Of a stretch of DNA of 64,000 bases, positions 10,034 through 59,583 are shown one piece after another (the stretch's first letter is position 1; every line of letters begins with the position of its first letter). The notes below the pieces were generated by a model. The model made no database searches and had not been told where the DNA came from. It saw nothing but the letters and a program-made list of their open reading frames with translations. The DNA lies in NCBI GenBank assembly GCA_031262295.1, contig JAISIA010000024.1:10659-74658 (forward strand), read 5' to 3'. Origin of the DNA: Bacteroidales bacterium (GTDB lineage: Bacteria > Bacteroidota > Bacteroidia > Bacteroidales > P3). A program made the translations under genes and the position numbers.

Positions 10034-10036
10034 TTA

Positions 10037-10275: not shown

Positions 10276-10310
10276 TAGGATTATGAAGAATAAATTTTAA
10301 AATTTTACAA

Positions 10311-32484: not shown

Positions 32485-32540
32485 AAACTATTTTTTTTAT
32501 TTTTGTTATTTTAATGTTTTTAACTTCTAATTCCAATCCG

Positions 32541-32548
32541 CAAAGGTA
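32541..32548 (-). promoter_or_regulatory. -7 box upstream of glmS
   Basis: Complement reads TACCTTTG, 56 nt upstream of start 32484. Confidence 0.4.
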
Positions 32549-32645
32549 ATACAATTTATTATAAATATAGTAAAACACATATTAAACCACATTAGTTGTA
32601 GAATTAAACCAAAAATACAATTTCTTGAATTTTGGAATTTTGTTG

Positions 32646-32653
32646 TACCTTTG
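32646..32653 (+). promoter_or_regulatory. -7 box directly upstream of trpS
   Basis: TACCTTTG ends 4 nt before ATG 32658. TTTC lies 21 nt upstream. Confidence 0.45.
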
Positions 32654-32657
32654 CACA

Positions 32658-33653: not shown

Positions 33654-33654
33654 T

Positions 33655-34335
33655 ATGTCAAAACTTTATTTGGTTCCAACTCCAATAGGGAATTTGGAAG
33701 ATATTACTCTTCGTGCTATACGCATACTAAAAGAGGTTGATCTAATTCTTGCAGAGGATACACGCACTTCAAAGAAACTTCTAAACCATTACCAAATTAC
33801 AACCCCATTAGAGTCGTATCACCTATTCAATGAACACGAAAAAGTGGAAAGAATTGCAGAAAAAATAAGTGCAGGATATAAAGTTGCTCTTATAAGTGAT
33901 GCAGGAACGCCCGCTATTTCAGACCCCGGATACCTACTTGTTAGACAATGCGTAAAACATGATATAGTTGTGGAGACACTTCCCGGTGCAACAGCCCTTA
34001 TAGTTGCATTAGTTAATTCAGCAATACCTTGTAATAGTTTTTCTTTTGAAGGATTTCTTCCCACTAAAAAAGGGAGGAAAACCCTATTAGATAAACTAAA
34101 AACAGAAGAAAGAACTATGATATTCTACGAATCCCCTTTTAGATTAATAAAAACTCTAAAAGATTTTAGTGAATATTTTGGAAAAGATAGAAGGGCATCA
34201 GTAAGTAGGGAACTAACAAAACTATTTGAAGAAAACAAAAGAGGCACTTTGGAAGAATTAATAAACTATTTTGAAAATAAAACAATAAAAGGAGAAATAG
34301 TAATCATAGTTCAAGGGTCGGCAACCGACTTTTAA
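33655..34335 (+). CDS. rsmI: 16S rRNA (cytidine1402-2'-O)-methyltransferase
   Basis: 226 aa. Motifs LYLVPTPIGNLEDITLRA, EDTR and ISDAGTPAISDPG. The last 6 codons (SATDF*) are encoded by a hairpin repeat unit. Confidence 0.9.
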   Translation: MSKLYLVPTPIGNLEDITLRAIRILKEVDLILAEDTRTSKKLLNHYQITTPLESYHLFNEHEKVERIAEKISAGYKVALISDAGTPAISDPGYLLVRQCVKHDIVVETLPGATALIVALVNSAIPCNSFSFEGFLPTKKGRKTLLDKLKTEERTMIFYESPFRLIKTLKDFSEYFGKDRRASVSRELTKLFEENKRGTLEELINYFENKTIKGEIVIIVQGSATDF

Positions 34336-35333
34336 TTGTCCTTGCGGAAATATGGGTTTTTATAATTATATATTTATATACTTATATTTATAATTCAATA
34401 AAAAATTATTCTTGTTTAAAATTTCTAAAACAAGGATAATTTTCTATGTAAATACAATAATTACCTATCAATTCCACAAATTCAAGACCTAAAATGTTAT
34501 ATTTTCAAAAATATTTAACATTTCATACCCCATTTTTGACCCCATTTTTAACACTTTAGTAAATTTTTTCGCCAAAATTTAACATTTTTTAACATTTCAT
34601 TCAATTTTTGTCGGCAACCGACCTTTGTTTTTCCTAACGGAATTTCAGCTTTTCAAATTATTAATTATCAATATAATCCAAACAAATTTTAATATGTTTT
34701 CCCCGATTTTTAATTAAAAAACTCAAAACCTTATTTTTTCAGAAAAAAAACGAAGATTTCTCCAAATAAAACGCTGTTTTATTTTCCTAAAACGAAGAAA
34801 TAATTTTCTAAATCTTCGTTTTAATTTTCTAAAACGAAGATTTATTTAAAGATAACACACTAATAATAAGATTATTATAATGCAATCAAAAATAAAAATA
34901 AGTTGTGGGGAAATTTATATGTCTTTTGCCTTAAAAGAAACTTTGTTTGGCAAAGATACAAAAAAGATTTGATAAATGCAAACGGGAAATTTCAGTTTTG
35001 AAATTTGGAATTTAACATTTGAAGGAAAAAATGTTAAATATTTTTTGAAATTACATTTTTCATATATCAAAGCAATGGGATTCATCTCCTTGTAAAACTA
35101 ATATTATATACAAATAATGGTAATTTATATAAAGAAACAATACGGGAAAAGAGATAAACCCCCTTATTATTGGTTATTTTGTGTAATGCCCTTTGCGGAT
35201 TATCCCTACTGAATTATGACAAAATAAAGGTGGGTTTTGACTTCCGCAAGGACAATTAAATGCCTGTTGCAGGCTTGCCGACAACCAGACTTCCGTTAGG
35301 ACGACTAAATGCCACTTGGTGGCTTGCCGACAA
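34317..35333. repeat. intergenic repeat locus D: full-length long composite copy (about 1 kb, ORF-less)
   Basis: Components in order: hairpin unit 34317-34350, TTTAACATTT boxes 34514-34598, hairpin unit 34610-34645, 21-bp repeats 34741-34847, promoter 34951-34982 (minus), inverted repeat 35009-35039, and two terminal hairpin units 35239-35333. Collinear with the reverse complement of 46753-47600. Confidence 0.9.
34951..34982 (-). promoter_or_regulatory. Bacteroidetes sigma-A type promoter inside repeat copy D
   Basis: Minus strand: TTTG (complement 34979-34982), 20 nt, TATCTTTG (complement 34951-34958). It points toward the 21-bp array at 34741-34847. Confidence 0.6.
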
Positions 35334-35466
35334 ATAAATAATATTTCAATATAATGTCTCGTTGTTATAGTAAGAAAAATAAAACTTATGCCCTAAAAAT
35401 AACTTATATGGAGGCAAATTATGCAATATATAGAGCTATTTTTCAAAATATAAAATAATAAAATTT

Positions 35467-36675
35467 ATGAAGTTACTTTATAATTTAACATTAAACAAAA
35501 AGGTAAGGGCTTTTGCTATTATGGCATTAGCCTTGCCTTTTGGCTTATTTGCTCAAAGCAAAGTTATAGACTATGATACAACTATCTTTACAAAAGATAA
35601 AATTGATTGCATTTACAACAACATCATTTTAAGTTTTAATAATGATACTCTTTATTTTATAGACGAAAAGTTAGCACATAAAAATAAGTACAAAAAAGTC
35701 AAAATAAGTGGTCTTGACACAAAAACAAATAAAATGTTTTCCTTTTATTTTTCTGCTAAAAATTGTAATAACTTAAAAGATAAAAGAAATCATATTAGTC
35801 GTTTTTGGATAAAAGATAATAATCTTTATATAAATGTGTCTAATCATATTTATGTATTTAATAAAAATAAAGATAATGAATATGTTTTTCAAAAGGAAGT
35901 AAATAAACCTAAGGAAGGAGAAAATTATGATGCCTTTCCTTTAAAGGATAATAAGATTCTATTATATAAAAATTATCTCGGATTATTTGATACTTTTGAT
36001 GAAAGTACTTGTTGGTTATTATATGATTTAGAAAAAGAAGAAGTAATACAAAGAAAAGAGTATTTAAATTTCCCTTCTCCTATTTTAACTTACTTTGGAC
36101 CACGAGATATTATTAGCATAAGCAATGATAGGATATTTTATTCTCCTGCTAATGAATATAAAATACTGATTTATGATTTTAACCTTAACTTAGTTGATTC
36201 CATTGTGCATCAAAAAAAGAATTGGATAATGGTAGATGAGGAAAAAGAAAAGCAAGTACTTAATAAGTATGAAGAACCCATAGAAAGACTAAATGCTTTT
36301 TCAAATTATTTTTGGGATTCTACATCATCAATTATGAGACTTTTTACTTCTAATGATTATTTAATTGTAGTATATAAAGGGTTTAATGATAGTATAAAAT
36401 TGGAAATTGGCTTATATGATGTATGGCATAAAGAAAATAATGAATGGAAATTAATTGAAGAGGCTAATGAAGAAACTATTAATTATATTAAAAACAAATT
36501 TTATCCTTTTGGCGCAACCTTATTAAAAGACAATATTATTATTCAGATAAAAGAAAAGACCCCAATAAAGCGTGAAGATTATAAGAGCGAAGAAAAGTAT
36601 CAAAAAGCTAAGGAAAAGTATATTTTGAATGAAGATTGTTTATTAGTCATTGAAAAATTCCATATTAAGCAATGA
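35467..36675 (+). CDS. hypothetical secreted protein (possibly beta-propeller-like)
   Basis: 402 aa with a signal peptide, very AT-rich. No recognisable motif. The stop overlaps the next start (ATGA). Confidence 0.45.
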   Translation: MKLLYNLTLNKKVRAFAIMALALPFGLFAQSKVIDYDTTIFTKDKIDCIYNNIILSFNNDTLYFIDEKLAHKNKYKKVKISGLDTKTNKMFSFYFSAKNCNNLKDKRNHISRFWIKDNNLYINVSNHIYVFNKNKDNEYVFQKEVNKPKEGENYDAFPLKDNKILLYKNYLGLFDTFDESTCWLLYDLEKEEVIQRKEYLNFPSPILTYFGPRDIISISNDRIFYSPANEYKILIYDFNLNLVDSIVHQKKNWIMVDEEKEKQVLNKYEEPIERLNAFSNYFWDSTSSIMRLFTSNDYLIVVYKGFNDSIKLEIGLYDVWHKENNEWKLIEEANEETINYIKNKFYPFGATLLKDNIIIQIKEKTPIKREDYKSEEKYQKAKEKYILNEDCLLVIEKFHIKQ

Positions 36676-37151
36676 AAAAAATAGTTTTAATATCATTGCT
36701 TTGTTGTTTTATATTTATACCATCTTTTGGACAAAAACAAAAAGATGAATTTATAGATTTATATGGAGATAAAGCAACTTTACCAAAATTAGATACATTA
36801 TATATTGTCACCTTTTCAAGTCTTAGTTGCCATGGTTGTTATTTGGAGATTGCTTCTTTCTTTGAAAAAAAGAATGTATTTGATAATAAAAATATAGGTG
36901 TATTCTTTGTCGTTGGTGATTATGCTAAGAATTTGGAAAGTGCAATGAGGCGTAAGTATTTTTATAATAGTTTAGCTGAATATTTTCCTAATGTAAAGAA
37001 ATCACAAATATTATTTAATTCAAATATAAAAGATGATATTGTAACATTGTTTGGTAAGAATTACAATATTCATTCCATTCCAAAGATTTTCACAATAATT
37101 AATAATAAGAAAACAATTTACCCTTATGATGAATTTATAAAGAAAATGTGA
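36672..37151 (+). CDS. secreted thioredoxin-fold-like protein (CxxC)
   Basis: 159 aa with a signal peptide. CHGC motif in the context FSSLSCHGCYLE. Translationally coupled to the upstream ORF. Confidence 0.45.
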   Translation: MKKIVLISLLCCFIFIPSFGQKQKDEFIDLYGDKATLPKLDTLYIVTFSSLSCHGCYLEIASFFEKKNVFDNKNIGVFFVVGDYAKNLESAMRRKYFYNSLAEYFPNVKKSQILFNSNIKDDIVTLFGKNYNIHSIPKIFTIINNKKTIYPYDEFIKKM

Positions 37152-37226: not shown

Positions 37227-37244
37227 GAAAAATCATAATAAGAC

Positions 37245-37328
37245 TACCCATATTCCGCAAGGACGAATAAAAGCCGCTTGGCGGTCCGTTAGGACAACTA
37301 AATGCTCGTTGCGGGTTCGGTTGCCGAC
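37245..37328 (+). repeat. intergenic repeat locus E: about 3 hairpin units
   Basis: Sequence tattccgcaaggacgaataaaagccgcttggcgg / tccgttaggacaactaaatgctcgttgcggg / ttcggttgccgac. It overlaps the 3' end of the minus-strand TIGR02757 gene. Confidence 0.85.
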
Positions 37329-38062
37329 TTATTTATTCCATAACCGAAGAGGGCAAAATCTCCTAAAAGGGGATCGGAAGGGAAAATGGTTTTTAGATTT
37401 TCGGTAATTTGTAAGGCTGTTTTTAAGGAAGGTTGTTTTATTGTGGTTAATTGTAAAAATAAAGCCTCCTTATGAACATGAGTATCTAATGGAATAATCA
37501 AATCCTTTGGCTCTAAGATATTCCATAAACCAAAATCTACAATACCATCGTTTCTTATCATCCATCTTAAAAACATACATAAACGTTTGCAAGCAGAAGT
37601 GATATTATTAGGAATACCTTTCACATCTTTAAACATCGTTATTATTATTTTTAGAATAACAATAGAATTATTTCCCTCTTTGTTTTCTTTTTGTTTTTCT
37701 TCAATTGCTTTTTCCAAAGAGGAATATTTTTCATATATATTATATAATGTAAGGCAAAGATTGTAATAGTCATTAAAGGTATAAAAACGATATAGACAAG
37801 AGGGATTATTCTTATATTTTACAAATCCTTTTTCTTTTATAAATTGGTAGGGAGAATTGTTATACAAGGCAAATTCCTTATGAATAATTTCTAAGGTTTT
37901 TATTATTTGTTTCCTATTTCCATAAGAGAGCCAAGAGGAGATAAAGGCAGAAATTTCAATATCTTTTTTTTCTTTATAAAGATGTGGAAATTGTATTGGG
38001 TCATTAAGAATGAAGTCTTTATTATTATATCTTTTGGAATATTCTATAATTAGGTCTTTCAT
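37298..38062 (-). CDS. TIGR02757 (DUF2400) family protein
   Basis: 254 aa. N-terminus with DPIQFPH...EISAFISSWLSYGNRKQI. The last roughly 10 codons (SATEPATSI*) are encoded by hairpin repeat units. Confidence 0.5.
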   Translation of the reverse strand: MKDLIIEYSKRYNNKDFILNDPIQFPHLYKEKKDIEISAFISSWLSYGNRKQIIKTLEIIHKEFALYNNSPYQFIKEKGFVKYKNNPSCLYRFYTFNDYYNLCLTLYNIYEKYSSLEKAIEEKQKENKEGNNSIVILKIIITMFKDVKGIPNNITSACKRLCMFLRWMIRNDGIVDFGLWNILEPKDLIIPLDTHVHKEALFLQLTTIKQPSLKTALQITENLKTIFPSDPLLGDFALFGYGINKSATEPATSI

Positions 38063-38097
38063 TAAAATATTTGTAATTTATCTTCTATTATTTAATT

Positions 38098-40944
38098 TTA
38101 TTTTTTTATTGCCTGATAAATTATATCGTGGATATTTGTTCTAATATTTTCCTTTGCAAGACGATTTTCCTTTGCCGAAGGATACACTCTATTGGATAGG
38201 AAAATTAAAGACACTTTTTCCTTTTCATCTATCCAGAAAAATGTTCCTGTAAAACCTGTGTGACCATAACTTTTTTGAGAAGAATATTGTGAAGAAGGAG
38301 AATTATTATTTTTAGGATTCATTACGGGTTTATCAAATCCCAAAACCCTACGATTATTCTTAAAATATCTTGTATTGAATGTGTTTATTGTACTTTGGCT
38401 TATATAACGTTTTCCATTATAAGCACCATTATTAATTAGCATCTTTAATATTATTGCCAAATCATCGCAAGAAGAAAACAAGCCTGCGTGTCCTGCAACT
38501 CCATCCATAATATATGCAGTAGGGTCATGAACTTTTCCTAATATTAATTCATTTCTAAAATAGTCATCTCTTTCTGTTGGAGCGATGTTTTCTATGTTTT
38601 CTTCATCATTATCCAAAGGATTAAAACAAGTATTTTTTAATCCCAAAGGCTTATAGAAGTTTTCTTCTACATATTCATTCAATGGCATAGAAGATAATCT
38701 TTCAATTAAGTCGCCCAAAAGAATAAATCCTAAATCGGAATAAACATAGTTTTTTGTTTTATTTAACTTACTCTTAGCAATAGCTTTTAATATATCTTTC
38801 TTGTCTTTTATCTTTTCGTCATTATAAAAAGGTAGTGATGCCTTTAATCCTGAATTATGAGCCAAAACTTCTCTTATTGTTATTTTTCTTTTGTTTGTGA
38901 ATCTTAAATAAGGAAGGTATTTTGAAAGTCTATCATCCAAGTTATATTTTTTTTCATCGTATAGCCTCATCATTGCAAGGTTGGTTGCAAGTGCTTTTGT
39001 TATTGAAGCCAAATCATATATTGTATTGTCATCAACTCTTTTTATTGAATCGTAAGTAAAAAAGCCATATTGTTGTTTATATACAATATTTGTATCATAG
39101 AGAACTATTATTTGACATCCTGGATAAGCCTTTTTTATTATTCCATAATTGGCAATAGAATCTATTTTTTTTATATTTTCAAGTGAAATCTTCCCTTTGG
39201 AATATTTAACCCAATGCATAATATGTTCATCGTATGATAGAGCATAGTTTAAAGGCATGGTATCTGAGGCTGTTATTGGCAACATTCCTTTTGGATTAAT
39301 TTGTCCAAATATACTTTTTGCTAATGCTATTTCAAGGAATTTATCCTTTTGGTATCCAATTAATATTGTCTTTATGTTTTTTAGTGAGTCAATAAATTTT
39401 AAACTATATGGATTTGCAAAAAGAGCAAGGGATGTATTATTATATCTTTCTTGTATATTATAAAGGTCTTTTAATGCTTTATTGCTTATTCCATAATTAT
39501 GTTTTTCTGTTCTTTTTATATTTCCTGCAAGTATTGTAATAATATGAGTAAAGTTATTTAATGTATCTAAAACCAAACTATCCTTATCTGATATATTATA
39601 TGTTGTAGTTGTTTTATTATACATTTTAACTATTGAATCAAAGTCAGAAGAAAGGGCATTATCTCCCAGATGTACAATAGCTATTGAACAATTTGTAGTA
39701 TCGTATATTGGAAAATTATTTTCTTTGTTTTTAACTAAGGTTATGATTTCTTTGGAAAAAAGTTCATTTATTTTATTAGCTTCATCTATTATTTCTTCAC
39801 TTGGTAATTGTAGTTCTATATTATTTAACGTATCAAATAAACCCAAATCATATTTTGCTTGTAGGACTTTTCTACACTTTTCATCTATTTCAATTGGGCT
39901 TATTCTTCCCTCTTCTATTGCTTTTATTATTGCCTCAACAGCCTTATATTCATTTTTAGGCATAAGAAGTATATCAACTCCTGCCATAAGAGCTTTTACT
40001 TCTGCTTCTCCATCTTTATAGGTATTTGTAACACCTTTCATATTTAAGGCATCAGTTACAACTAATCCTTCAAAACAAAGTTCATTTTTTAAATAATCAG
40101 TAATCGCTTCATCGCTTAAAGAGGCAGGAGTTAGGGAATCTTTTATTAGAGTAGGGATATTAATATGTCCAACCATAACCATCTTTACTCCTTTATCTAT
40201 TGCATAACGGAAGGGGTAGGAATCTATGCTATCAATAAATTCTTTGCTATGATTAATTATTGGTAAGGAATAATGAGAATCGGTTTGTGTGTCTCCGTGA
40301 CCGGGAAAATGCTTAACCGAAGGTAGGACTTTACCATCTTGTAATCCCTTTGCATAAGCCCAACCTAAATACGCAACCTTATCTTTGTCTTCTCCAAAGG
40401 AACGAGAACCAATTATTGGATTTTTATAATTTAGATTAATATCTACACTTGGAGCAAAGTTTATATTTAATCCTAAACTTCGCAATTGCTTAGCCAAGTT
40501 TAAGCCCATTTTATAGACTAAATTACTATCGGAAGAAGCTCCTAAGGAGAGTTGATGATAAAAAGAAAAACCATCCTCCATTCTCATTTCTAATCCCCAT
40601 TCAGCATCTATTCCGAAAAACAAAGGGACTTTTGCTAAGGAAGAATATTTTTCATTTAGTTTTATAAGTGTTTTTTCATTTCCCTTAAAAAAACAAACGC
40701 CTCCCACTTTTAGACTATCTATCATAGTAGAAATTTTATCTACATATAATGAATCATCCTTTGTGTCGGAGGCTATAATTATTAGTTGTCCTATCTTTTC
40801 TCTTAGAGAAAGACAAGATAATATGCTATAAACTATACTATCTCTTTTGTGAAAATTGTCTTTAAATTGTGTCTCTTGTGAAAATAAATTGCCAAAGATT
40901 AGAAATATGGCTGTAAGAAATAGTATATTTGATTTAATTTTCAT
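38098..40944 (-). CDS. fusion protein: GH3 beta-N-acetylhexosaminidase domain + serine beta-lactamase/PBP-like hydrolase domain
   Basis: Start trimmed to MKIKSNILF (complement 40942-40944). GH3 motif KHFPGHGDT. C-terminal half has SxxK (ASITKAL) and YSDLGF motifs. Confidence 0.8.
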   Translation of the reverse strand: MKIKSNILFLTAIFLIFGNLFSQETQFKDNFHKRDSIVYSILSCLSLREKIGQLIIIASDTKDDSLYVDKISTMIDSLKVGGVCFFKGNEKTLIKLNEKYSSLAKVPLFFGIDAEWGLEMRMEDGFSFYHQLSLGASSDSNLVYKMGLNLAKQLRSLGLNINFAPSVDINLNYKNPIIGSRSFGEDKDKVAYLGWAYAKGLQDGKVLPSVKHFPGHGDTQTDSHYSLPIINHSKEFIDSIDSYPFRYAIDKGVKMVMVGHINIPTLIKDSLTPASLSDEAITDYLKNELCFEGLVVTDALNMKGVTNTYKDGEAEVKALMAGVDILLMPKNEYKAVEAIIKAIEEGRISPIEIDEKCRKVLQAKYDLGLFDTLNNIELQLPSEEIIDEANKINELFSKEIITLVKNKENNFPIYDTTNCSIAIVHLGDNALSSDFDSIVKMYNKTTTTYNISDKDSLVLDTLNNFTHIITILAGNIKRTEKHNYGISNKALKDLYNIQERYNNTSLALFANPYSLKFIDSLKNIKTILIGYQKDKFLEIALAKSIFGQINPKGMLPITASDTMPLNYALSYDEHIMHWVKYSKGKISLENIKKIDSIANYGIIKKAYPGCQIIVLYDTNIVYKQQYGFFTYDSIKRVDDNTIYDLASITKALATNLAMMRLYDEKKYNLDDRLSKYLPYLRFTNKRKITIREVLAHNSGLKASLPFYNDEKIKDKKDILKAIAKSKLNKTKNYVYSDLGFILLGDLIERLSSMPLNEYVEENFYKPLGLKNTCFNPLDNDEENIENIAPTERDDYFRNELILGKVHDPTAYIMDGVAGHAGLFSSCDDLAIILKMLINNGAYNGKRYISQSTINTFNTRYFKNNRRVLGFDKPVMNPKNNNSPSSQYSSQKSYGHTGFTGTFFWIDEKEKVSLIFLSNRVYPSAKENRLAKENIRTNIHDIIYQAIKK

Positions 40945-41021
40945 AGCACAAAAATAAAAAAAAGTCGTCAAGTAAAACTTAACGACCTTTATTTTTTCTT
41001 AATAATAAGTTTCTTTTCTTA

Positions 41022-41474
41022 TTAATTTAAGCATTTTTTCACATTAAACAATGCATCTTTTACTCTCTTTTCGTAAGTAGGGTTATTCAAACATTGTTTT
41101 ACTGCATTTTGTTTAGCATCACTTTGATTTTTTAAATCAACATAATCTTTAAAGCCTTTTGCTCCATTACCTTTTTGAGCATAAGCATTACTTAATTTAT
41201 AAGCATAAGCTTCAAAGTCTGCAACTATTTTTTCGCAAGGATCAACTTCTTGTTTAGCCTTAGTTGTTTCTTGCTTTGCAGCAGGAGTTGTAGCCTTAGT
41301 TGTAGTTGTTGTTTTTGGAGCTTCAGCTTTTGGCTCTTCAACAGGAACTTCTTCCACTGCTACTACTTCTTCAATTTCTGTTGCAGTTGGAGTTTCAACA
41401 ACTGCTTCTTTTTTTGCACAAGCAGCAACAAATGCTACCATTGCAACTGCTAATAATAGGTTTCTTACCTTCAT
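41022..41474 (-). CDS. lipoprotein with low-complexity E/V/T/K linker
   Basis: 150 aa. Lipobox VAACAK. A TACCTTTG box lies on the minus strand at 41519-41526. Confidence 0.55.
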   Translation of the reverse strand: MKVRNLLLAVAMVAFVAACAKKEAVVETPTATEIEEVVAVEEVPVEEPKAEAPKTTTTTKATTPAAKQETTKAKQEVDPCEKIVADFEAYAYKLSNAYAQKGNGAKGFKDYVDLKNQSDAKQNAVKQCLNNPTYEKRVKDALFNVKKCLN

Positions 41475-41715
41475 AAATTTTTGTTTTTTTATTGTTATAT
41501 TAATCTACTTTAACGCTGCAAAGGTATAAATAAAATTACACCTAAAAGGTAATAAATATGTATTTTTATTTTATTTTTCACAATACAATATCTGTTTATC
41601 AAATAATTAAATAGATGAAAAACAAATACAATATAACTTTATATCTTTTTGCAGAAAGAAAAAACTTGCTTATAGAGGTTTTGAAATATAATTTATATTT
41701 TTTCGTTTTAATTTG

Positions 41716-41723
41716 TATCTTTG
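41716..41723 (+). promoter_or_regulatory. -7 box upstream of the M6 protease gene
   Basis: TATCTTTG, 85 nt before ATG 41809. Confidence 0.4.
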
Positions 41724-41808
41724 CCGACTTATTTTGCCTATTTAAGGTGAATACTTATGGTGAATTTAATTTATAAATAATTTTTTAAACATTAATAAAA
41801 TTGATAAT

Positions 41809-44736
41809 ATGACAAAAAAATTGTCCCTAATAGTAATGCTGCTTTTCTTTGCAGTTAATGTTTTTGCTGTACCTGCAAATCCAAAAGCTTTTACAATAAA
41901 ACAAAAAGATGGAAGAAGTTTAACAATAAAACTTAGAGGTGATGAAAAAGTAAATTGGGGAGAGACATTAGATAAATACACTATTATACACAATAATGAA
42001 GGAGTATGGGTTTATGCTATTTTAGATAAGGAAGGAGACTTAATCCCTTCAAGTTTTATTGCAGTAAATGAAAAAGAGAGAACAAAACAAGAAAAAGAAT
42101 TTCTTAGAACCCTACCATTTAATTTAAGATACTCTTCAAAGCAGATAAAAGAAAAAAGAGAGGCTTTTACAAAAAGTAGTTTTTCTCATAAGGCAACAAC
42201 AATAGGAACAGTTCATCAAGTTGTTATATTAGTTGCTTTTTCAAATAAGAGCTTTACTTTCCCTGCAAGTAATTTTGATAATATGTGCAATGAAATTGGT
42301 TATAGCTATAATGGAGCAACAGGAAGTGTTAAGGACTATTATAGGGATAACTCAAATGGACTAATGAATATGGAGATTGATGTTTTGGGACCTTACACCC
42401 TATCTAATACTTCTGCTTATTATGCAGACTATAGTCACATGTATCAATTTGTATCCGAAGCCTTAACTCTTGCAGATAATGATATTGACTTTACAGATTA
42501 TTTAAATGGTAATAATAATGTAGGTAATGTTCATTTTGTATTTGCAGGACAAGCACAATCAACAACAGGAGACCCAACGGAAATATGGCCTCACGAATCC
42601 TATGTTCCAAATTCAATAGTAAAAGACGGAGTTCATTTTTCAACATATTCTTGTTCTTCTGAAAAGAAAACAGCAACAACATTAGCAAGTATAGGTACTA
42701 TGTGTCATGAGATGGGACATTCATTAGGACTTATGGACCTTTATGACACCGACTATGAAGAAAATGGTCAAGCAAACGACCCTTCGGTTTGGGATGTTAT
42801 GGCAGGAGGAAACTATAATAATGATGGAAATACTCCTCCTTATTTGAATGGTTGGGAAAGAAGTATATTAAATTGGACAGACAATGTTGTTTTAAGTCAA
42901 GAGAGTTTAGTTTATGCTCCTGCTATGGGAGATTCTCTTGTTTCCTATCAAGTAGATTTGGACAATAATGAATACTATCTAATAGAAAATAGGACAAGAA
43001 AAGGATGGGATAGTTTCCTTCCGGGTGATGGATTATTAATCTTTCATGCAGATAAAAGACAATTGGAAGGAACAACCGACTTCTACTACAATCAAATTAA
43101 TGCTAACCCCAATAATATGGGTTTTTTCATAGAAGTATCAACAGGAGTACCTTCTCAAACAACAACAGCATACGCTCCATTTGTTGGAGCAAGTAATCAA
43201 GATTATTTTACAAGCAATTCAACCCCTTCAACACATAAAAAAGACGGGACAATAGTTAATAAACCTCTTACTCACATGCATTATACTAATGACTCTGTCA
43301 TCTCTTTTCGTTACCTTTCTTCACTTGCACAAGTAAAAACTATGGGCATCGTTGCAGGAACAATACGTGGAACAACAGCTGATGTAAATGGATTAATTGC
43401 ATACGAAGGTACAGGAAATATTATTGAAAAGGGAATGTATTGGGATTTGGATGCAAGCCTTGTTGGTGTTAATTCAAACAAAAACATATCTACTTCAAAT
43501 AACGATTCAATTAAAACAACCCTCACTAATCTTCCAACAAGTACAACCATACATTATAGAGCATACGCAATAACAGAAACCGACACATCTTTGGCAAGTC
43601 AAATTATGTCTTTTACAACAACCGATGGACTCCCTACTGTTTTAACTTCAAATGTTAATAGTATAGGAAATAATCAAGCAACATTTAATGGTTCATTAGT
43701 AAATTTAGGTGATGGTAATTTTATTGAAAAAGGATTTGTCTATTCCAATGATCCTTCTTCAATGCCAACAATAGAAGATAATAAATTAGTTGTTCCCTAT
43801 TCAACTCAAACAGGAGCTTTTTCTGCAACTGCAACATCCCTAAACGAACAAACCACTTATGCTGTTAGAGCTTTTGCAACAAATAACTTCGGAACAAAAT
43901 ACGGAACAAGAAAAATATTCACAACAACATTCCCAGAGATAGAAAACAATACCATATCTTCAAATCAAACATTTTGTCAAGGAGGAACACCTGAACAATT
44001 AGTGGGACAAGCACCAAGCGGAGCATACGGCAATTTTACTTATAAATGGGAACAAAAGGTTAGAAATAATGCTTGGGAAGAAGCAACCCAAACAAACAAC
44101 ACTAAGGACTATGAACCAGAATATCTAACAGATTCTACTTTCTATCGTAGAATAGTTTTTTCTCAAAACATAAAAGATACATCCAATGTAATACTAATAA
44201 ATATACAAAACTCTTGGGGAGGTTATGTTTCTATGCCAAAAGATACAATATTTACAGGTTCTTCAACAGGAACAATAAGACTTTTATCCTATGTTGGAAC
44301 AATAAAAAATTGGGAAAGGAAAAAAGATGAAGGAGAATGGGAAAACATTTCTCGCACAACAAGCTCCTTTTCCCAAACCTTAGAAGAAGAAGGTCTATAT
44401 TCTTATAGAGTAAAAATACAAGCGGGAACCTGTCCTGAGGCTTATTCACAAGAAGGAACAATATATGCAGCAGTTAATTCATTAGAAAAAGTAATAGATG
44501 ATGAAAATATAAAAATATATCCAATTCCAACAAAAGATGTTCTTAATATAAGTTCTTCTTATAAATACCCAACACAAATAAGTATAATAAATTCCTTAGG
44601 TATTATCATAAAGGAAGAAACAACAAGAATTGATAATAAGGCTTTGGATGTATCAAATTTAAAAAGCGGAGTATATACTCTTATAATAAATTTGAATGAT
44701 AAACCTTTCAAAAAAACATTTGTTATAAATAAATAA
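41809..44736 (+). CDS. M6-family (immune inhibitor A-like) metalloprotease with T9SS sorting domain
   Basis: 975 aa with a signal peptide. Zinc motif HEMGHSLGLMDLYD. C-terminal IKIYPIPTKDVLNISS...KKTFVINK is a T9SS sorting domain. Confidence 0.8.
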   Translation: MTKKLSLIVMLLFFAVNVFAVPANPKAFTIKQKDGRSLTIKLRGDEKVNWGETLDKYTIIHNNEGVWVYAILDKEGDLIPSSFIAVNEKERTKQEKEFLRTLPFNLRYSSKQIKEKREAFTKSSFSHKATTIGTVHQVVILVAFSNKSFTFPASNFDNMCNEIGYSYNGATGSVKDYYRDNSNGLMNMEIDVLGPYTLSNTSAYYADYSHMYQFVSEALTLADNDIDFTDYLNGNNNVGNVHFVFAGQAQSTTGDPTEIWPHESYVPNSIVKDGVHFSTYSCSSEKKTATTLASIGTMCHEMGHSLGLMDLYDTDYEENGQANDPSVWDVMAGGNYNNDGNTPPYLNGWERSILNWTDNVVLSQESLVYAPAMGDSLVSYQVDLDNNEYYLIENRTRKGWDSFLPGDGLLIFHADKRQLEGTTDFYYNQINANPNNMGFFIEVSTGVPSQTTTAYAPFVGASNQDYFTSNSTPSTHKKDGTIVNKPLTHMHYTNDSVISFRYLSSLAQVKTMGIVAGTIRGTTADVNGLIAYEGTGNIIEKGMYWDLDASLVGVNSNKNISTSNNDSIKTTLTNLPTSTTIHYRAYAITETDTSLASQIMSFTTTDGLPTVLTSNVNSIGNNQATFNGSLVNLGDGNFIEKGFVYSNDPSSMPTIEDNKLVVPYSTQTGAFSATATSLNEQTTYAVRAFATNNFGTKYGTRKIFTTTFPEIENNTISSNQTFCQGGTPEQLVGQAPSGAYGNFTYKWEQKVRNNAWEEATQTNNTKDYEPEYLTDSTFYRRIVFSQNIKDTSNVILINIQNSWGGYVSMPKDTIFTGSSTGTIRLLSYVGTIKNWERKKDEGEWENISRTTSSFSQTLEEEGLYSYRVKIQAGTCPEAYSQEGTIYAAVNSLEKVIDDENIKIYPIPTKDVLNISSSYKYPTQISIINSLGIIIKEETTRIDNKALDVSNLKSGVYTLIINLNDKPFKKTFVINK

Positions 44737-44757
44737 GAATAAAAAAAACTTTATAAT

Positions 44758-45141
44758 ATGAACAAGGTAATAAATACTGATAAGGCACCAAAAGCAATAG
44801 GACCTTATAGCCAAGCAATATTGGCAGAAAATGGAATGTTATTTATTTCAGGACAAATCCCTGTATGTCCTCAAACAGGAAAAGTTCCAGAAGGAATCAA
44901 AGAACAAACAACACAGGTTTTTGAAAACATAAAAGCAATATTAGAAGAGGCTGGTTATAGCTTTAAAGATGTTGTAAAAACAACTTGTTTATTAAATTCT
45001 ATGGACGACTTTGCAGCTATGAACGAAGTGTATGCAAAGTACTATAATGAATTTCTTCCTGCAAGAGCTGCTTATAGCGTTGAAAAACTTCCTATGGGAG
45101 TATTAGTTGAAATAGAAACTATTGCTTATAAGGCTAAATAA
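44758..45141 (+). CDS. ridA: RidA family reactive-intermediate deaminase
   Basis: 127 aa. Motifs [17 protein letters not shown] and [20 protein letters not shown]. Confidence 0.9.
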
Positions 45142-45156
45142 AAAAAATAGAATCTA

Positions 45157-45753
45157 TTGGAAAAGGTAGGACTATTTTTTGGCAGCTTTAATCCAATCCA
45201 TAAAGGACATACTTTTTTAGCAAAACAAATATTAGAGAAAGCAAACCTCAACAAGGTATGGTTTGTTGTTTCTCCACAAAATCCTTTAAAGGAAAACACT
45301 GAACTTTTGGACGAAAAGACAAGACTGCTATTAGTTCGTTTAGCAATAAAGAATGAAAAAAACTTTGTTGCCTCTGATGTGGAATTTCATTTAAATAAGC
45401 CCTCCTACACAATAAACACCTTAGACTTCCTAAAAGAAAAATATCCCAATAAATTATTCTCAATAATAATGGGAATGGATAATTTTGATAATTTTCATCT
45501 GTGGAAAAACTATCAAGAAATATTGAACAATTATACAATATATATATATCCAAGAAAAGAACAAGACAATGAAGAAAACAATAATAAAGAAAATTTAATT
45601 GGGAAAAATATAGTCTTTTTTTCTTTTCCATTACTAAACATTTCCTCTACCATTATAAGAGAGAAATTACGTAATAAAGAAAGTATAGAAAACTATGTTG
45701 AAAAGGAAGTAAAAGAGAAAATAGAAAAAAATAATCTTTATTGTAACTCTTAA
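45157..45753 (+). CDS. nadD: nicotinate-nucleotide adenylyltransferase
   Basis: 198 aa with a TTG start (45157-45159). Motifs GSFNPIHKGH and ISSTIIRE. Confidence 0.85.
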   Translation: MEKVGLFFGSFNPIHKGHTFLAKQILEKANLNKVWFVVSPQNPLKENTELLDEKTRLLLVRLAIKNEKNFVASDVEFHLNKPSYTINTLDFLKEKYPNKLFSIIMGMDNFDNFHLWKNYQEILNNYTIYIYPRKEQDNEENNNKENLIGKNIVFFSFPLLNISSTIIREKLRNKESIENYVEKEVKEKIEKNNLYCNS

Positions 45754-45812
45754 AAATATTTTGCGTAATAGTGTGCAGTTTTTTTAATAATTAAAAAAGG
45801 TTAATTATATAG

Positions 45813-46676
45813 ATGAGACAATTAAAAATTATCAAGCAGCTTACCAATAGAGAAATTACCTCTTTGGATAAATACCTTCAAGAGATAGGTCGTTTGGAAA
45901 TGATTTCTCCCGAAGAAGAAGTTATTTTAGCACAAAAAATAAAACAAGGAGACCAAGCAGCATTAGATCGTTTGGCAACAGCAAACCTAAGATTTGTTGT
46001 ATCTGTTGCAAAGCAATATCAAAATCAAGGTATGTCCCTTCCTGATTTAATCAATGAAGGTAACTTGGGATTAATAAAAGCAGCACAACGTTTTGATGAA
46101 ACAAGAGGATTTAAGTTCATCTCCTATGCAGTTTGGTGGATACGTCAATCAATTCTTCAGGCTTTAGCAGAACAAAGTCGTATAGTAAGACTACCCTTAA
46201 ATAAGATAGGCTCACTAAATAAGATAAATAAAACTTATGCTAAGTTGGAACAGAAGTTTGAAAGACAACCCAACCCTGAGGAAGTTGCTTTTGAATTGAA
46301 TCTTTCCGAAAGCGAAGTGAGAGAAGCTGTACGCCATAGCGGAAAACATCTTTCTATGGATGCTCCTTTGGCAACAGATGAAGATAATACCATGTATGAC
46401 TTTATGCGTAGTGAAGAAAACACAACACCTGAGGCTGAACTTATGTACGAAAGTCTAAGAATGGAGATAAATAGAGCCATTTCTACCTTAACACAAAAAG
46501 AAGCTGACATACTAAAAATGTTCTTCGGATTGGAAGGTTATCCTCCTATGACTTTGGATGAAATAGGAGAACAATTTGATTTAACCCGAGAAAGAGTACG
46601 TCAAATTAAAGAAAAAGCAATACGCAGATTAAAACACACATCAAGAAGTAATATACTCAAAACTTATTTGGGATAA
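45813..46676 (+). CDS. rpoD: primary RNA polymerase sigma factor (Bacteroidetes sigma-A type)
   Basis: 287 aa. Regions 2-4 present ([41 protein letters not shown]). Confidence 0.9.
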
Positions 46677-46712
46677 CTTATTTAAGATAAAGGTTAAATA
46701 TTAATAATTTTT

Positions 46713-46751
46713 AGCGACTAAGAACAAAAAAACGTTCTTAGTCGCTTTTTT
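46713..46751 (+). terminator. rho-independent terminator of rpoD
   Basis: 13-bp stem agcgactaagaac / gttcttagtcgct, 8-nt loop, then TTTTTT. The repeat copy F starts 2 nt later. Confidence 0.8.
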
Positions 46752-46752
46752 A

Positions 46753-47690
46753 GTCGGCAACCGACCTTTAATTTTCCTAACGGAAGTCTGGTTGTCAGCA
46801 ATTGACCTTTATTTTGTCTAATTCAATAGGGATAATCCGCAAAGAAAATTACATAAAATAACCAATAGCAAAGGGATTTATCCCCTTGTAAGCATTGTTT
46901 CTTTATATAAATTACCAATATTTGCGTATAATATTATTTTTACAATGGGATGAACCCCATTGTTTTGATATATGAAAAATGTAATTTCAAAAAATATTTA
47001 ACATTTTTCCCTTCAAATGTTAAATGCCGAAACTCCCAATTTGGAAAATGCCATTTGCATATATCAAATCTTTTTTGTACCTTTGCCAAAACAAAGTTTC
47101 TTTTAAGGGCAAGAAAGCTCTAATATTTCCAAATTTCATTTTCCTTTATATTTACAAAATAATCACTTTATTATTAGTGTGTTATCTTTAAATAAATCTT
47201 CGTTTTAGAAAATTAAAACGCTGTTTTAGAAAATTATTTCTTCGTTTTAGCAAATTAAAACAGCGTTTTATTTTGGAAAAATAAGGTTTTTGTTTTTTTA
47301 ATTAAAAATCTGAAAAATTATATTGAAATTTACTTATATTATATTGAGGATTACTTGATTACTAATTTTAGAAAATTTTAACAAATTTTGAAGCTCTAAA
47401 ATTGAGAAATTGAGTGAAATGTTAAAAATTCGTCAAATTTTGTGTTTTTTATGAGGAAGAAATGTTAAAATTTGGTGATTTTAGGGTTGGAAATGTTAAA
47501 ATCTTTTGAAAAAATAATATTTTAGATCTTTAATTTGTGGAGTTGATTGATAATTATTGTATTTACATAAAAATTATCCTTGTTTGTCGGCAACCGACCT
47601 TTATTCAGCTATTGGATTGAAAAAAATATAAGAAATTAAAACAAAGTTTTAGAAAAATAAAACAGCAACTTATTTTTTTATCTTGCTATT
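46753..47690. repeat. intergenic repeat locus F: full-length long composite copy, inverted relative to D
   Basis: Components in order: hairpin units 46753-46806, inverted repeat 46996-47025, promoter 47054-47085 (plus), four 21-bp repeats 47193-47276, GAAATGTTAAAA boxes at 47416, 47459 and 47489, hairpin 47586-47598, and degenerate 21-mers at about 47633-47680. Confidence 0.9.
47054..47085 (+). promoter_or_regulatory. Bacteroidetes sigma-A type promoter inside repeat copy F
   Basis: TTTG (47054-47057), 20-nt spacer, TACCTTTG (47078-47085). This matches the -33 TTTG / -7 TAnnTTTG consensus. It points toward the 21-bp array. Confidence 0.6.
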
Positions 47691-47842
47691 TTATTTTTTT
47701 TAAATGGGGTATTAACATAGAAAACAGCAACAAAACGTAAATCTAATCAAGATTTTGCGTAAAATATACATTTTTTTTAAGTTTTTTCAATAAAAAATAC
47801 ACTTTTCTTTGAATAAATTTATAAGTATCCAATTTTAATTAG

Positions 47843-47850
47843 TACCTTTG
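47843..47850 (+). promoter_or_regulatory. -7 box upstream of the EPS locus first gene
   Basis: TACCTTTG, 33 nt before ATG 47884. Confidence 0.45.
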
Positions 47851-47883
47851 CGGGTTGAATTTATTATGATAAACACTATTTAA

Positions 47884-49026
47884 ATGGGACTTAAAGCAGT
47901 TAGATTGTTAAGTGAAACAATAATTGTATTGGCAACTATAATAATGGCGGGCGTCAGCATTTATGCATCTCAGGCTCGCTTTTTTAATCCGCACCAGCAT
48001 GCATTTATTTCACTAATGGCTTTGTTTGCAATAGCAGTTGTTGCAATTAATGTATTCTTGGCTTTTTATTGGGCATCTAAGTTAAGAGCGTGGTTCTTTG
48101 TATCACTTGCAACCATTCTCCTATTCATTCCTTATCTATCCACAATGATTCAAATATCATTTAAAACGCCTCCTTCTTATGATGATAAGGATTTTAGCGT
48201 TGTTTCATACAATGTAAAGAGCTTTACATACAAGAATGATTACAAAACATCTTTGAATTACATAGCTTTTGGCATTTCTCAGAAACAACCCGATATTGTT
48301 TGTTTCCAAGAATTTTTCTTAGGAATAGATGCCAAGTTAGAAGAAATACCTAATCGTCAAAATATATTAGATAGTATTGCACACTTTTTAGGTATGCCTT
48401 ATTATGCATTAGGCAAAAATGGCTATGGAGTATCGGATTTGGCAATATTTAGTAAGTTTCCAATAACTAAGACTTCCTCTCATATATACGAAAATACTCA
48501 CAATGGGTCTATGTCTTGCGATATTAATGTTAGGGGAAAGATGATAAGGGTTATAAATTGTCACCTACAAACCACTAATATAAATCAACGAAGGGGTGAG
48601 ATTGCAAAACTAAAAGATATAACTCGTCCAAGAGTTTTTGCTCAGGCTTTACAAAACCTATATGAAACTATGAGTAAAAACTCCATACGTAGAGCAGCAC
48701 AGGCTGCATACGTAAATAACTTCACCAAAGATCCAGATATTCCAACAATTGTTTGCGGAGACTTAAATGAAACTCCTTCTTCCTTTGTTTATAAACAAGT
48801 AAAGGGTGATTTAGCAGATGGATTTAAAGAAGCTGGAAGAGGATTTGGAGCAACATACAAGAAGATGTTTGGCATAATAAGGACGGATTATATATTTAAT
48901 TCTTCCGATTTGCAATGTGTAAATTATGTAAAAGAAGATTTGGATTATTCAGACCATATTCCAATATTTGGTTTTTATAAGTTCAAAGAAGAAAATAAGG
49001 AATTAACTTCTTTAATAGGATATTAA
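47884..49026 (+). CDS. membrane-anchored endonuclease/exonuclease/phosphatase (EEP) family protein
   Basis: 380 aa with 3 N-terminal TM helices. Motifs VVSYNV, CFQEF, GDLNETP and SDHIP. A TACCTTTG box lies at 47843-47850. Confidence 0.75.
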   Translation: MGLKAVRLLSETIIVLATIIMAGVSIYASQARFFNPHQHAFISLMALFAIAVVAINVFLAFYWASKLRAWFFVSLATILLFIPYLSTMIQISFKTPPSYDDKDFSVVSYNVKSFTYKNDYKTSLNYIAFGISQKQPDIVCFQEFFLGIDAKLEEIPNRQNILDSIAHFLGMPYYALGKNGYGVSDLAIFSKFPITKTSSHIYENTHNGSMSCDINVRGKMIRVINCHLQTTNINQRRGEIAKLKDITRPRVFAQALQNLYETMSKNSIRRAAQAAYVNNFTKDPDIPTIVCGDLNETPSSFVYKQVKGDLADGFKEAGRGFGATYKKMFGIIRTDYIFNSSDLQCVNYVKEDLDYSDHIPIFGFYKFKEENKELTSLIGY

Positions 49027-59532: not shown

Positions 59533-59583
59533 TTAATTTCAGGGTGCAAAAATACATCTTTTTTCTCTCTCTCCAAATTTTTT

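Follow-up and report, generated by a model that had tools for sequence, protein, structure and literature searches.

Mosaic repeats interspersed through the genome have been well characterised in Proteobacteria and in Firmicutes, but we know of few descriptions of them in Bacteroidota. BIME, BOX and Correia elements are the closest analogues of the element reported here. With the REP units and BIMEs of enterobacteria it shares high-copy intergenic hairpin units with compensatory stem changes, which are found singly or in clusters of up to four, in either orientation. As in BIMEs, these units are combined with other short motifs into a mosaic, lie after stop codons or between convergent genes, and resemble terminator or stabiliser hairpins. 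Unlike BIMEs, the partner motif is a phased 21-bp tandem array and the long variant has its own promoter. There is no sequence similarity, and no RAYT (IS200-like) transposase was seen among the 20 proteins scanned from the window (the whole 64-kb stretch of DNA that was analysed).

Pneumococcal BOX elements (boxA-boxBn-boxC) are viewed as parasitic repeats that affect the genes co-transcribed with them (Croucher et al., 2011; PMC3049150). Our element resembles them in being modular, intergenic and lineage-restricted, in having a tandem internal subunit of variable number (3.7–5.8 units here) and in that some copies are likely transcribed. It differs in unit length (21 nt, against about 45 nt for boxB), has no sequence homology to BOX, and gave no evidence of terminal pairing of the boxA/boxC type; its short copies A and C fold no better than shuffled sequences (z-scores −1.8 and −0.4). 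Correia elements of Neisseria are short, non-autonomous intergenic repeats that bring a functional host-type promoter and protein-binding sites to many loci; they measure 100–155 bp, end in inverted repeats of 26 bp and have TA target duplications. The present element is likewise an intergenic repeat distributing a host-type promoter, with read-out transcripts that would vary in consequence. Unlike Correia elements, the long copies span from about 430 nt (truncated copy B) to 910 nt (copy D), show no target duplication, and have a promoter that points into the element.

The source is an uncultured Bacteroidales MAG with a G+C content of about 30%. We give roughly an even chance to the reading that the element is a lineage-specific, modular interspersed repeat of this MAG, carrying a promoter cassette in its long variant. 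It is built from REP-like terminator hairpins and a 21-bp array, to which the long copies add the promoter cassette with AAATGTTAAA motifs. The short form opens with one to four REP-like hairpin units; an AT-rich spacer comes next, and then a strictly phased array of CGTTTTA-containing units. In the long variant (copies F and D and the truncated copy B), about 370 bp separate the REP-like units from the array, and another 150–300 bp with AAATGTTAAA motifs lie 3' of it. The family is a compact example of how terminator hairpins, themselves portable, can be combined with a phased 21-bp array and a near-consensus promoter and spread across housekeeping intergenic regions. Within 64 kb there are 14 intergenic REP-like units and six arrays. 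The copies other than F are:

10036–10277 (+): short copy A; two REP-like units, a spacer of about 30 nt and a six-unit array, no promoter
16718–17143 (−): copy B, truncated long form; promoter 17098–17129, four-unit array 16914–16991
27813–28010 (−): short copy C; one REP-like unit and a five-unit array, no upstream promoter
34434–35345 (−): copy D, long form; promoter 34951–34982, four-unit array 34767–34844
63172–63470 (−): short copy E; four REP-like units and a five-unit array, no promoter module

The REP-like units have a constant CAA loop and stems that vary compensatorily (GTCGG/CCGAC, GCCAC/GTGGC, GCCTG/CAGGC, CCCG/CGGG and CCGC/GCGG), and they double as small intrinsic terminators at gene ends. 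Two of them lie at 35228–35345 in copy D, the array of which includes a perfect 15-bp hairpin (34809–34844); those of copy E include an 85-bp tandem duplication. Modules are combined differently in the short copies, in F and D, and in B, where neither the upstream module nor the inverted repeat nor the 3' module is present. Identity also differs by module, so the copies are mosaics. A MITE with target-site duplications was considered and rejected, because D and F have flanks in common and so are not independent insertions. No sign of mobility (transposase, target-site duplication or insertion polymorphism) was found. With only three long copies, parasitic and functional repeats are statistically inseparable.

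Copy F, the most complex region, is arranged as follows:

46753–46818 (+): two REP-like units with hairpin GTCGG-CAA-CCGAC and tail TTTAATTTTCCTAACGGAAGTCTGG
46819–47031 (+): upstream module common only to F and D; 87% identical to 35004–35216
47054–47057 and 47078–47085 (+): sigma-A type promoter; −33 TTTG, 20-nt spacer and −7 box TACCTTTG, predicted start about 47090
47054–47100 (+): conserved 47-nt block; both boxes, the spacer and the first 11 or so transcribed bases
47082–47112 (+): hairpin TTGCC...GGCAA of the sequence-only reading; stem of 5–6 bp, loop of about 20 nt
47113–47160 (+): unconstrained leader segment; 62% of columns variable
47161–47192 (+): conserved pre-array block, CTTTATTATTAGTGTGTTATC...
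47193–47270 (+): 21-bp array; four units alternating between TTTCTTCGTTTTAG and AAAACnnnGTTTTAG types
47271–47414 (+): post-array module common to F, B and D; B and D 97% identical, F about 70%
47417–47500 (+): three direct AAATGTTAAA motifs
47484–47579 (+): 3' module common only to F and D (34434–34530)
47586–47680 (+): REP-like hairpin in terminator orientation (47586–47598), then a degenerate array of one to two units

The first REP-like units lie directly 3' of the rpoD terminator; the second of them is degenerate, and there is a terminator-like hairpin at 46753–46765. Two related hairpins occupy the upstream module (46869–46888 and 46942–46963, the latter with a T-run), together with a palindrome, TTTAACATTT-N8-AAATGTTAAA, at 46997–47024. 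The stretch at 47586–47680 is a 'short-type' element that abuts copy F. All 13 window sites of AAATGTTAAA (1.8 expected) lie in or beside repeat elements: 12 are inside long copies and one is beside an orphan promoter near array C. An orphan TACCTTTGC is found at 27694–27702 (−), 111 nt downstream of short copy C.

The last AAATGTTAAA motif of F (47491–47513) forms a 21–23-nt inverted repeat with 46984–47006, and copy D has such a pair at 35029–35051 and 34501–34523. Invertible promoters are reportedly common in Bacteroidales, and a sigma-A promoter within inverted repeats of this length about 500 bp apart recalls them. D and F would then be promoter switches, with the repeats as crossover sites for a trans-acting recombinase; F would be ON for the polysaccharide-type operon starting at 47884, and D would be OFF for 35467–37151. 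The repeat of D is 91% identical over 23 nt, that of F is equivalent with one indel, and each pair encloses some 485–505 bp including the promoter. F also lies upstream of and faces its operon, which encodes a Bac_transf sugar transferase and an outer-membrane (OEP) protein, and an inverted D would face the gene at 35467. We nevertheless find this reading very improbable. Copy B has neither the inverted repeat nor a gene to serve, and with respect to the flanking modules that they share, D and F are oriented alike internally, with no inversion seen. A scan of 20 window proteins turned up no recombinase, although a trans-acting one is possible. The promoter adjoins one repeat arm yet points inward across the entire segment, and between it and the gene at 47884 in F lie a REP hairpin and that gene's own promoter (47843). 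Finally, the repeat core is a motif also present as several direct copies, and it differs from the ARACGTWCGT motif of the Mpi system of B. fragilis.

The sequence-only reading had described a near-perfect promoter with an identical 20-nt spacer in three copies, aimed at the array about 105 nt downstream and, in B and D, convergent with neighbouring genes; each of these points was borne out. TTTG-N20-TAnnTTTG is present at 47054–47085 (+), 34951–34982 (−) and 17098–17129 (−), and the stringent form TTTG-N20-TAYCTTTGC at 47054–47086 (+), 34950–34982 (−) and 17097–17129 (−). All three long copies therefore have the −33 TTTG and 20-nt spacer of sigma-ABfr promoters, and a −7 box in the form TACCTTTG or TATCTTTG. 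From the end of this box to the array is 106–107 nt in every case. The promoters of B and D aim at the 3' ends of the convergent genes 16099–16584 (+) and 33655–34335 (+). That of F is co-directional with the gene 47884–49026, and we rejected it as the driver of the downstream operon because this gene has its own TACCTTTG box at 47843–47850, 34 nt upstream. The −7 box of Bacteroidota occupies −12 to −5 (PMC9723704), which puts the predicted start in copy F at about 47090.

The same motif marks real promoters in this genome. TAYCTTTGC occurs at 16 window sites (1.5 expected); by our reading of site-to-gene distances about 12 lie just 5' of gene starts, and the remaining four are the three element copies and an orphan site near array C. 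Scanning the window with TTTG-N19-21-TAYCTTTGC gave four matches against 0.04 expected, namely the three long copies and the real promoter of the M23 peptidase gene at 29037–29069. The looser TAnnTTTG is also found 5' of tRNA-Gly (59547–59577, minus strand). Agreement with the sigma-A (sigma-ABfr) consensus is at least as good in the three copies as in the window's real gene and tRNA promoters. Since TAYCTTTGC is a good predictor of promoters within the window, the long-copy promoter is probably active, and we consider it likely that it fires.

A non-coding transcript from the long copies is thus plausible. It would be AU-rich, with 5' ends at about 47090, 34946 and 17093, and would cross the array before ending differently in each copy. 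In F it would extend for about 510 nt up to the REP hairpin; in B and D it would read through antisense into the convergent genes. If the repeat reading that we prefer is correct, this RNA would be a by-product of a repeat-borne promoter, comparable to the promoters of Correia elements or insertion sequences, or would at most act locally; it would not come from a dedicated gene for a structured ncRNA. Firing promoters would mean antisense or read-out transcription at many loci of an uncultured lineage, and such promoters are worth allowing for in annotation pipelines and sRNA predictions for MAGs of this kind.

The 47-nt block at 47054–47100 has 4 of 47 columns variable across the three copies, against 60 of 107 in its flanks (47007–47053 and 47101–47160; Fisher p = 1e-8). 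About 92% of the block is kept, and both flanks have decayed to 55–65% in all three copy pairs. That the promoter is conserved while its flanks drift, as had been claimed, is thus true of the block; the boxes themselves are no better kept than the rest of it (0 of 10 versus 4 of 37 variable columns, p = 0.56 with three copies). The array (12% variable) and pre-array blocks are conserved to about the same degree. B and D are 97% identical over the 180 nt 3' of the array but only 55–60% in the leader.

Conservation of the whole block, spacer included, with boxes indistinguishable from it, would also be expected if the promoter were an inert relic. The long copies would then derive by segmental duplication from the promoter and 5' part of a former gene, alike through recent duplication or gene conversion and not through function. 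The mosaic identity patterns do indicate recombination between copies, and the real promoter of the M23 peptidase gene (29022–29069) matches the block at 77% identity. Yet both flanks are near saturation in all three pairs, so the block is old and has nonetheless been preserved. A conversion tract of exactly 47 nt in three of three copies is unlikely, and every specified base of both boxes is intact in every copy. We regard a relic as distinctly improbable. To the disadvantage of the repeat reading that we prefer, the block is hard to obtain without constraint; something here is under selection, and it could be transcription of the array.

Selection for array transcription is what a genuine multi-copy ncRNA gene would entail, in which a sigma-A promoter, perhaps controlled via the upstream AAATGTTAAA palindrome, makes an RNA in which tandem CUUCGUUUUA/UAAAAC hairpin units are the working part. 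We judge this unlikely, though several observations speak for it. The promoter is strong, its distance from the array is fixed, there are exactly four units in three of three copies, and conservation is block-wise in the promoter and in the pre-array and array. In B. thetaiotaomicron, transcription from a sigma-ABfr promoter accounts for 76% of the intergenic sRNA candidates (PMC7366714). Copies F and D also form better folds than shuffled sequences do (z-scores −3.4 and −2.8). Against our preferred repeat reading, D and F look self-contained, with a T-run hairpin (in F), palindrome, promoter, 107-nt leader and four units.

The predicted RNA itself fits such a gene less well. The conserved 5' hairpin proposed for it conflicts with the start site given in the same reading: its left arm (TTGCC, 47082–47086) is the end of the −7 box plus one base, and would not be transcribed because the predicted start at about 47090 lies downstream. 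Minimum-energy folds differ among F, D and B, and B folds no better than shuffles (z-score −0.7), as is the case for the short copies A and C. The RNAalifold covariation term was +2.33 (positive values penalise), with compensatory change in 2 of 41 pairs, though three sequences give low power. The 3' end is not common to the copies. B and D have no co-oriented terminator-like site, every such hairpin downstream facing the opposite way, and the sole downstream candidate in F is the 5-bp REP hairpin at 47586–47598, about 510 nt away. No ORF conserved across the long copies was found; a small-protein reading was rejected, as indels in D and B (1-nt indel) disrupt the reading frame of every ORF of at least 20 aa that F contains. 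A search of the whole window against Rfam at the gathering score returned only tRNAs, and in E-value mode 46680–47890 gave only chance-level matches.

Such an RNA might sequester an RNA-binding protein, as decoys of the CsrB/RsmZ type do, in which case the promoter-less 3' UTR arrays would be the same sites on mRNAs. The resemblance to those decoys lies in being multi-copy, promoter-driven and non-coding, with short hairpin motifs in tandem and, in D and F, a palindrome whose centre is about 70 nt upstream of the start. It is architectural only: there are no GGA motifs, no terminator and no conserved fold here. To our knowledge, Bacteroidota lack Hfq and CsrA, and we know of no partner protein of the CsrB/RsmZ type in this phylum. 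It seems quite unlikely that the long copies are paralogous decoy-RNA genes of a new kind, with a regulator at the AAATGTTAAA palindrome, units that titrate an RNA-binding protein, and that protein's natural mRNA targets in the promoter-less 3' UTR arrays here and in other Bacteroidales.

Searches outside the window did not recover the long form. A promoter-free pattern combining hairpin loop and pre-array, which recovers three of three window copies, had no match in 185,579 species genomes, and 1.5 Mb of related Bacteroidota loci contained no match to nhmmer profiles of four modules. Array and promoter patterns had no match in IMG/VR, a blastn search of the copy F element against plasmids and phages gave nothing relevant, and a full-text literature search for the unit and REP sequences returned only primers. 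The searches of these collections thus yielded neither an Rfam family nor a long-form homologue. Nor do the collections contain a close relative of the source MAG: its proteins (MDR09711xx, LBM25_) form singleton clusters, the closest RpoD is 78% identical, and the closest homologue of a lineage-specific protein is 47% identical. Two contigs of relatives (L094 and L096) have none of the modules. Independent contigs of this organism in Logan break off within a REP unit, the array or the 3' module (L097 covers window 37257–46777, L098 covers 27853–34344, and L001 begins at 47556), which fits a multi-copy sequence.

Related short arrays built from the same unit do occur at eight distinct Bacteroidales metagenome loci, where the REP, promoter, hairpin-loop (AAACAAAGTTTCT), pre-array and AAATGTTAAA patterns are all absent. 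In some of these loci the array separates a stop codon from an intrinsic terminator or is placed between convergent genes. At four loci (L082, L089, L092 and L093) the array is just 5' of an intrinsic terminator and so would be transcribed, in keeping with an ncRNA gene; at four others (L084, L086, L088 and L090) the unit is antisense in the 5' region of a gene, which speaks against one. In the window, three of the six arrays (A, C and E) have no promoter and directly follow REP units, so the array is not tied to the promoter. Together with the lack of a common terminator, fold or covariation and the absence of the long form outside the window, this tells against the proposal of a selected transcription unit for a repeat-containing ncRNA. 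A selected RNA gene, as opposed to a promoter riding on mosaic repeat DNA, is not established. Current understanding stays as it is unless a discrete RNA or a binding protein turns up.

The arrays keep a strict register: rows of 21-bp period contain 0% indels, and seven positions (T6, A7, C11, G15, T17, T18 and A20) are invariant among 28 units. A CRISPR array was rejected, the 21-nt units being head-to-tail without spacers and the window proteins scanned having no cas-like domains. Plasmid iterons or a replication origin were also rejected, with six loci in housekeeping context and no match in plasmid or phage collections, and the unit fits the LytTR-type direct-repeat consensus poorly.

The array and the AAATGTTAAA motifs may instead act as DNA, as phased protein-binding sites at which the promoter is regulated or roadblocked and array transcription is incidental. 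We think this improbable, but several features point that way. A 21-bp period is two helical turns, the copy F array includes a 20-bp palindrome (CGTTTTA-GAAAAT-TAAAACG, that is CGTTTTA-N6-TAAAACG), the 10-mer is found in both orientations within arrays, and AAATGTTAAA is confined to the elements and their borders. Opposing these, no candidate binding protein emerged, and there is no DNA-binding protein gene among the element-adjacent genes scanned. Most window arrays are at gene 3' ends or between convergent genes, with nothing for operators to control, and tandem slippage alone maintains a 21-bp register.

Arrays elsewhere also speak for binding sites. The related MAG LBR17 and other array-bearing contigs contain many other 21–23-bp arrays built on perfect palindromes (for example GAAACCTAGGTTTC x8 and AAAGATGCGCATCTTT), located in promoter regions and leaders, their density exceeding that in 1.36 Mb of other Bacteroidota loci more than 10-fold. 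Intergenic arrays of this period, with different and often palindromic units, are thus unusually numerous in the source lineage and in some other Bacteroidales. Judged from sequence, their abundance suggests either a class of phased protein-binding sites that has so far escaped notice or a lineage-specific process that generates repeats.

The source MAG is an uncultured 'Bacteroidales bacterium' with no close relative in the collections searched. Its RpoD is 78% identical to the closest match among 185,579 species genomes, and a lineage-specific protein has its closest homologue at 47% identity. The window lies within a 76.6-kb contig (NCBI proteins MDR0971121-42, locus tags LBM25_) and has a G+C content of ~30%. 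The intergenic element, in six copies (A-F), neighbors housekeeping genes (rpoD, rsmI, M23 peptidase, PorV, IspF) and a polysaccharide-type operon. We give about an even chance to its being an interspersed repeat, modular and lineage-specific, of the REP/BIME, BOX or Correia type, with a probably active sigma-A promoter in its long variant. Non-coding RNA through the array would then be a by-product or local effect of the repeat-borne promoter rather than the output of a dedicated structured RNA gene. By sequence the family is new; in kind it is known.

Repeat features and long-copy promoters (TTTG-N20-TAnnTTTG) in the window
10036-10117, REP-like
10147-10277, +, array A
16584-16625, REP-like
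16758-16801, REP-like
16914-16991, -, array B
17098-17129, -, promoter, copy B
27813-27915, -, array C
27965-28010, REP-like
34313-34360, REP-like
34404-34432, degenerate array remnant (one to two units)
34610-34653, REP-like
34767-34844, -, array D
34951-34982, -, promoter, copy D
35228-35345, REP-like
37239-37284, REP-like
46753-46818, REP-like
47054-47085, +, promoter, copy F
47193-47270, +, array F
47586-47625, REP-like
47630-47677, degenerate array remnant (one to two units)
63172-63277, -, array E
63298-63500, REP-like

In each of the 14 intergenic REP-like units, a hairpin whose loop is always CAA precedes a T-rich tail, TTTAATTGTCC(TAAC/TTGC)GGAAGTCTGG. Stems vary by compensatory changes (GTCGG/CCGAC, GCCAC/GTGGC, GCCTG/CAGGC, CCCG/CGGG, CCGC/GCGG). 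Because the units begin 0-14 nt past the stop codons of five genes with no other terminator, they look like portable intrinsic terminators. At rsmI (33655-34335) the hairpin (34313-34335) starts within the last codons, and the insertion appears to supply C-terminal residues or the stop, plus a terminator. Logan contigs of the same organism from an independent assembly (SRR14710920) end within a REP unit, the array or the long-copy 3' module, which fits genome-wide multi-copy status of all three. A recent 85-bp tandem duplication at 63260-63429 (94% identity), covering the last array unit, a spacer and one REP-like unit, shows that element modules are still expanding by unequal exchange.

All 28 units of the six arrays keep a strict 21-nt register, with T6, A7, C11, G15, T17, T18 and A20 invariant. 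Units are of two types (...TTTCTTCGTTTTAG and ...AAAACAGCGTTTTAG); adjacent ones form the palindrome CGTTTTA-N6-TAAAACG, and copy D contains a perfect 15-bp hairpin. The REP tail TTTAATTTTCCTAACGGAAG (46767-46786) is 75-80% complementary to the array unit CTTCGTTTTAGAAAATTAAA (47198-47217, 47240-47259), and inversion and tandem multiplication of REP tails may have given rise to the array.

Short copies (A, C, E) lack the promoter cassette, and one to four REP-like units run directly into the array. The long copies (F, D and the truncated B) look like this short element with two additions: ~370 bp between REP units and array (upstream module, AAATGTTAAA palindrome, promoter, leader), and a tail of 150-300 bp carrying more AAATGTTAAA motifs. 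The window has 13 copies of AAATGTTAAA (1.8 expected), every one of them within or next to an element. A 21-23-nt inverted repeat built on AAATGTTAAA (34501-34523 / 35029-35051 in D; 46984-47006 / 47491-47513 in F) flanks ~485-505 bp containing promoter and array. This geometry is inverton-like, and the repeat in D is 23 nt at 91%, with an equivalent in F; however, D and F show only one orientation, no recombinase was found among the 20 window proteins scanned and copy B has no such inverted repeat, and we regard an inverton as very unlikely.

The promoter call for the long copies is sound. The sequence-only reading had located the promoters correctly, aimed at the array (106-107 nt from the -7 box end to the four-unit array in all three copies) and, in B and D, convergent with neighboring genes (16099-16584 and 33655-34335). 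In F the promoter is co-directional with 47884-49026, a gene with a TACCTTTG box of its own 34 nt upstream. The loose TTTG-N20-TAnnTTTG pattern is not rare in the window (8 matches, 5.0 expected), but the form actually carried, TTTG-N19-21-TAYCTTTGC, matches 4 times against 0.04 expected, the fourth being the genuine M23 peptidase gene promoter. TAYCTTTGC by itself occurs at 16 sites (1.5 expected), ~12 of them just 5' of a gene start by our reading of site-to-gene distances, and the looser TAnnTTTG is also found 5' of tRNA-Gly. The motif is thus predictive of real promoters in this genome, with the element copies among its best matches.

Two further boxes were seen. A TACCTTTG box at 32646-32653 (site 32646-32658) is only ~4 nt ahead of the start codon called for a tRNA-synthetase gene (Logan contig L098), pointing to an mRNA with little or no leader. 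An orphan consensus -7 box, TACCTTTGC (27684-27702, -), lies on the same strand as array C, 111 nt downstream of it; directly after it come AAATGTTAAA and, ~55 nt further on, an inverted partner. It faces the 3' end of gene 27155-27613, which runs convergently, and there is no gene for it to drive.

We aligned the long copies (F 46753-47600(+), D ~35345-34434(-), B ~17143-16718(-)) and counted variable columns in F coordinates.

Variable columns among the three long copies
47007-47053, upstream flank, 26/47
47054-47100, promoter block, 4/47
47007-47053 + 47101-47160, both flanks, 60/107

Since block and flanks differ (p=1e-8), the core observation that the promoter is kept while flanks drift is right for the three long copies. 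It holds for the entire 47-nt block of boxes, spacer and first transcribed bases; specified box positions (0/10 variable) are indistinguishable from the block's other columns (4/37; p=0.56). The array (12% variable) and pre-array block (25%) are conserved to about the same degree as the promoter block. B and D are 97% identical over 180 nt after the array, yet only 55-60% in the leader. The long copies are mosaics, and recombination between them complicates any selection argument. Block-wise constraint and the gene-like layout of D and F (upstream hairpin, palindrome at ~-70, promoter, fixed leader, four units) argue for more than a by-product; an inert relic is quite unlikely.

We consider a true multi-copy ncRNA, such as a decoy RNA, improbable. 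The proposed conserved 5' hairpin (47082-47112) has as its left arm TTGCC (47082-47086), the last four -7 box bases and the next base. Since the Bacteroidota TAnnTTTG box occupies -12 to -5 (PMC9723704), the predicted start is ~47090, near the 47091-47094 proposed earlier, and the arm falls outside the RNA. Run on the three copies, RNAalifold recovers this stem along with two hairpins in the array, with no covariation support (positive term, +2.33; compensatory change in only 2/41 pairs). Folded singly, the three predicted transcripts take different structures (z-scores -3.4, -2.8, -0.7). Terminator-like hairpins 3' of the promoter in B and D are all on the opposite strand, being REP-like units serving the convergent genes; no co-oriented one was found there. 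In F the first co-oriented candidate is a 5-bp REP hairpin (47586-47598), ~510 nt from the predicted start. No ORF is conserved across the long copies, and if the promoters fire, the products would be non-coding and without a shared 3' end. The earlier sequence observation was largely correct, while a selected ncRNA transcription unit is a possibility only, weakened by several checks.

Outside the window, no Rfam family was found for the element, and plasmid, phage and IMG/VR collections gave no match. A promoter-free long-form pattern had 0 matches in 185,579 species genomes, and four module profiles run with nhmmer on other Bacteroidota loci (1.5 Mb) had no hit. The array unit is present in 12 stretches from fermentation and other metagenomes (8 distinct loci), as one to three units lying between stop codon and intrinsic terminator, between convergent genes or, in one locus family, antisense in a gene's 5' region. 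None of the 12 stretches has the REP, promoter, hairpin-loop, pre-array or AAATGTTAAA patterns. The array therefore predates the promoter cassette, is more widely distributed and is independent of it.

Phased binding sites working at the DNA level would suit the strict two-turn period, and we rate them as improbable as the decoy RNA. In favor of such sites, relatives and array-bearing metagenome contigs (L094, L085, L091, L092, L096) hold many further intergenic arrays with a 21-23-bp period, whose unrelated units are often perfect palindromes (GAAACCTAGGTTTC x8, AAAGATGCGCATCTTT, TATAATCAA...). They number ~5 per 21 kb in L094 (related MAG LBR17) and 6 per 64 kb in the window, compared with 12 across 1.36 Mb from other Bacteroidota loci.

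Other 21-23-bp-period arrays in L094
2404-2514
11746-11815
14671-14860
19182-19363

In L094, a TTTG-N20-TATCTTTG promoter is followed 115 nt later by one of these arrays, and an S4-domain gene lies 140 nt beyond the array; the arrangement of promoter and array matches that of the long copies. The antisense locus family is one locus in four metagenome assemblies (L084, L086, L088, L090). There, a two-unit CTTCGTTTTA array, three direct GTATATACC repeats spaced 22-24 bp apart and a TAccTTTG box on the minus strand all lie 5' of a small gene starting MPIKYRIYKKKF..., whose product may be HU-like; the locus is another phased-repeat promoter region.
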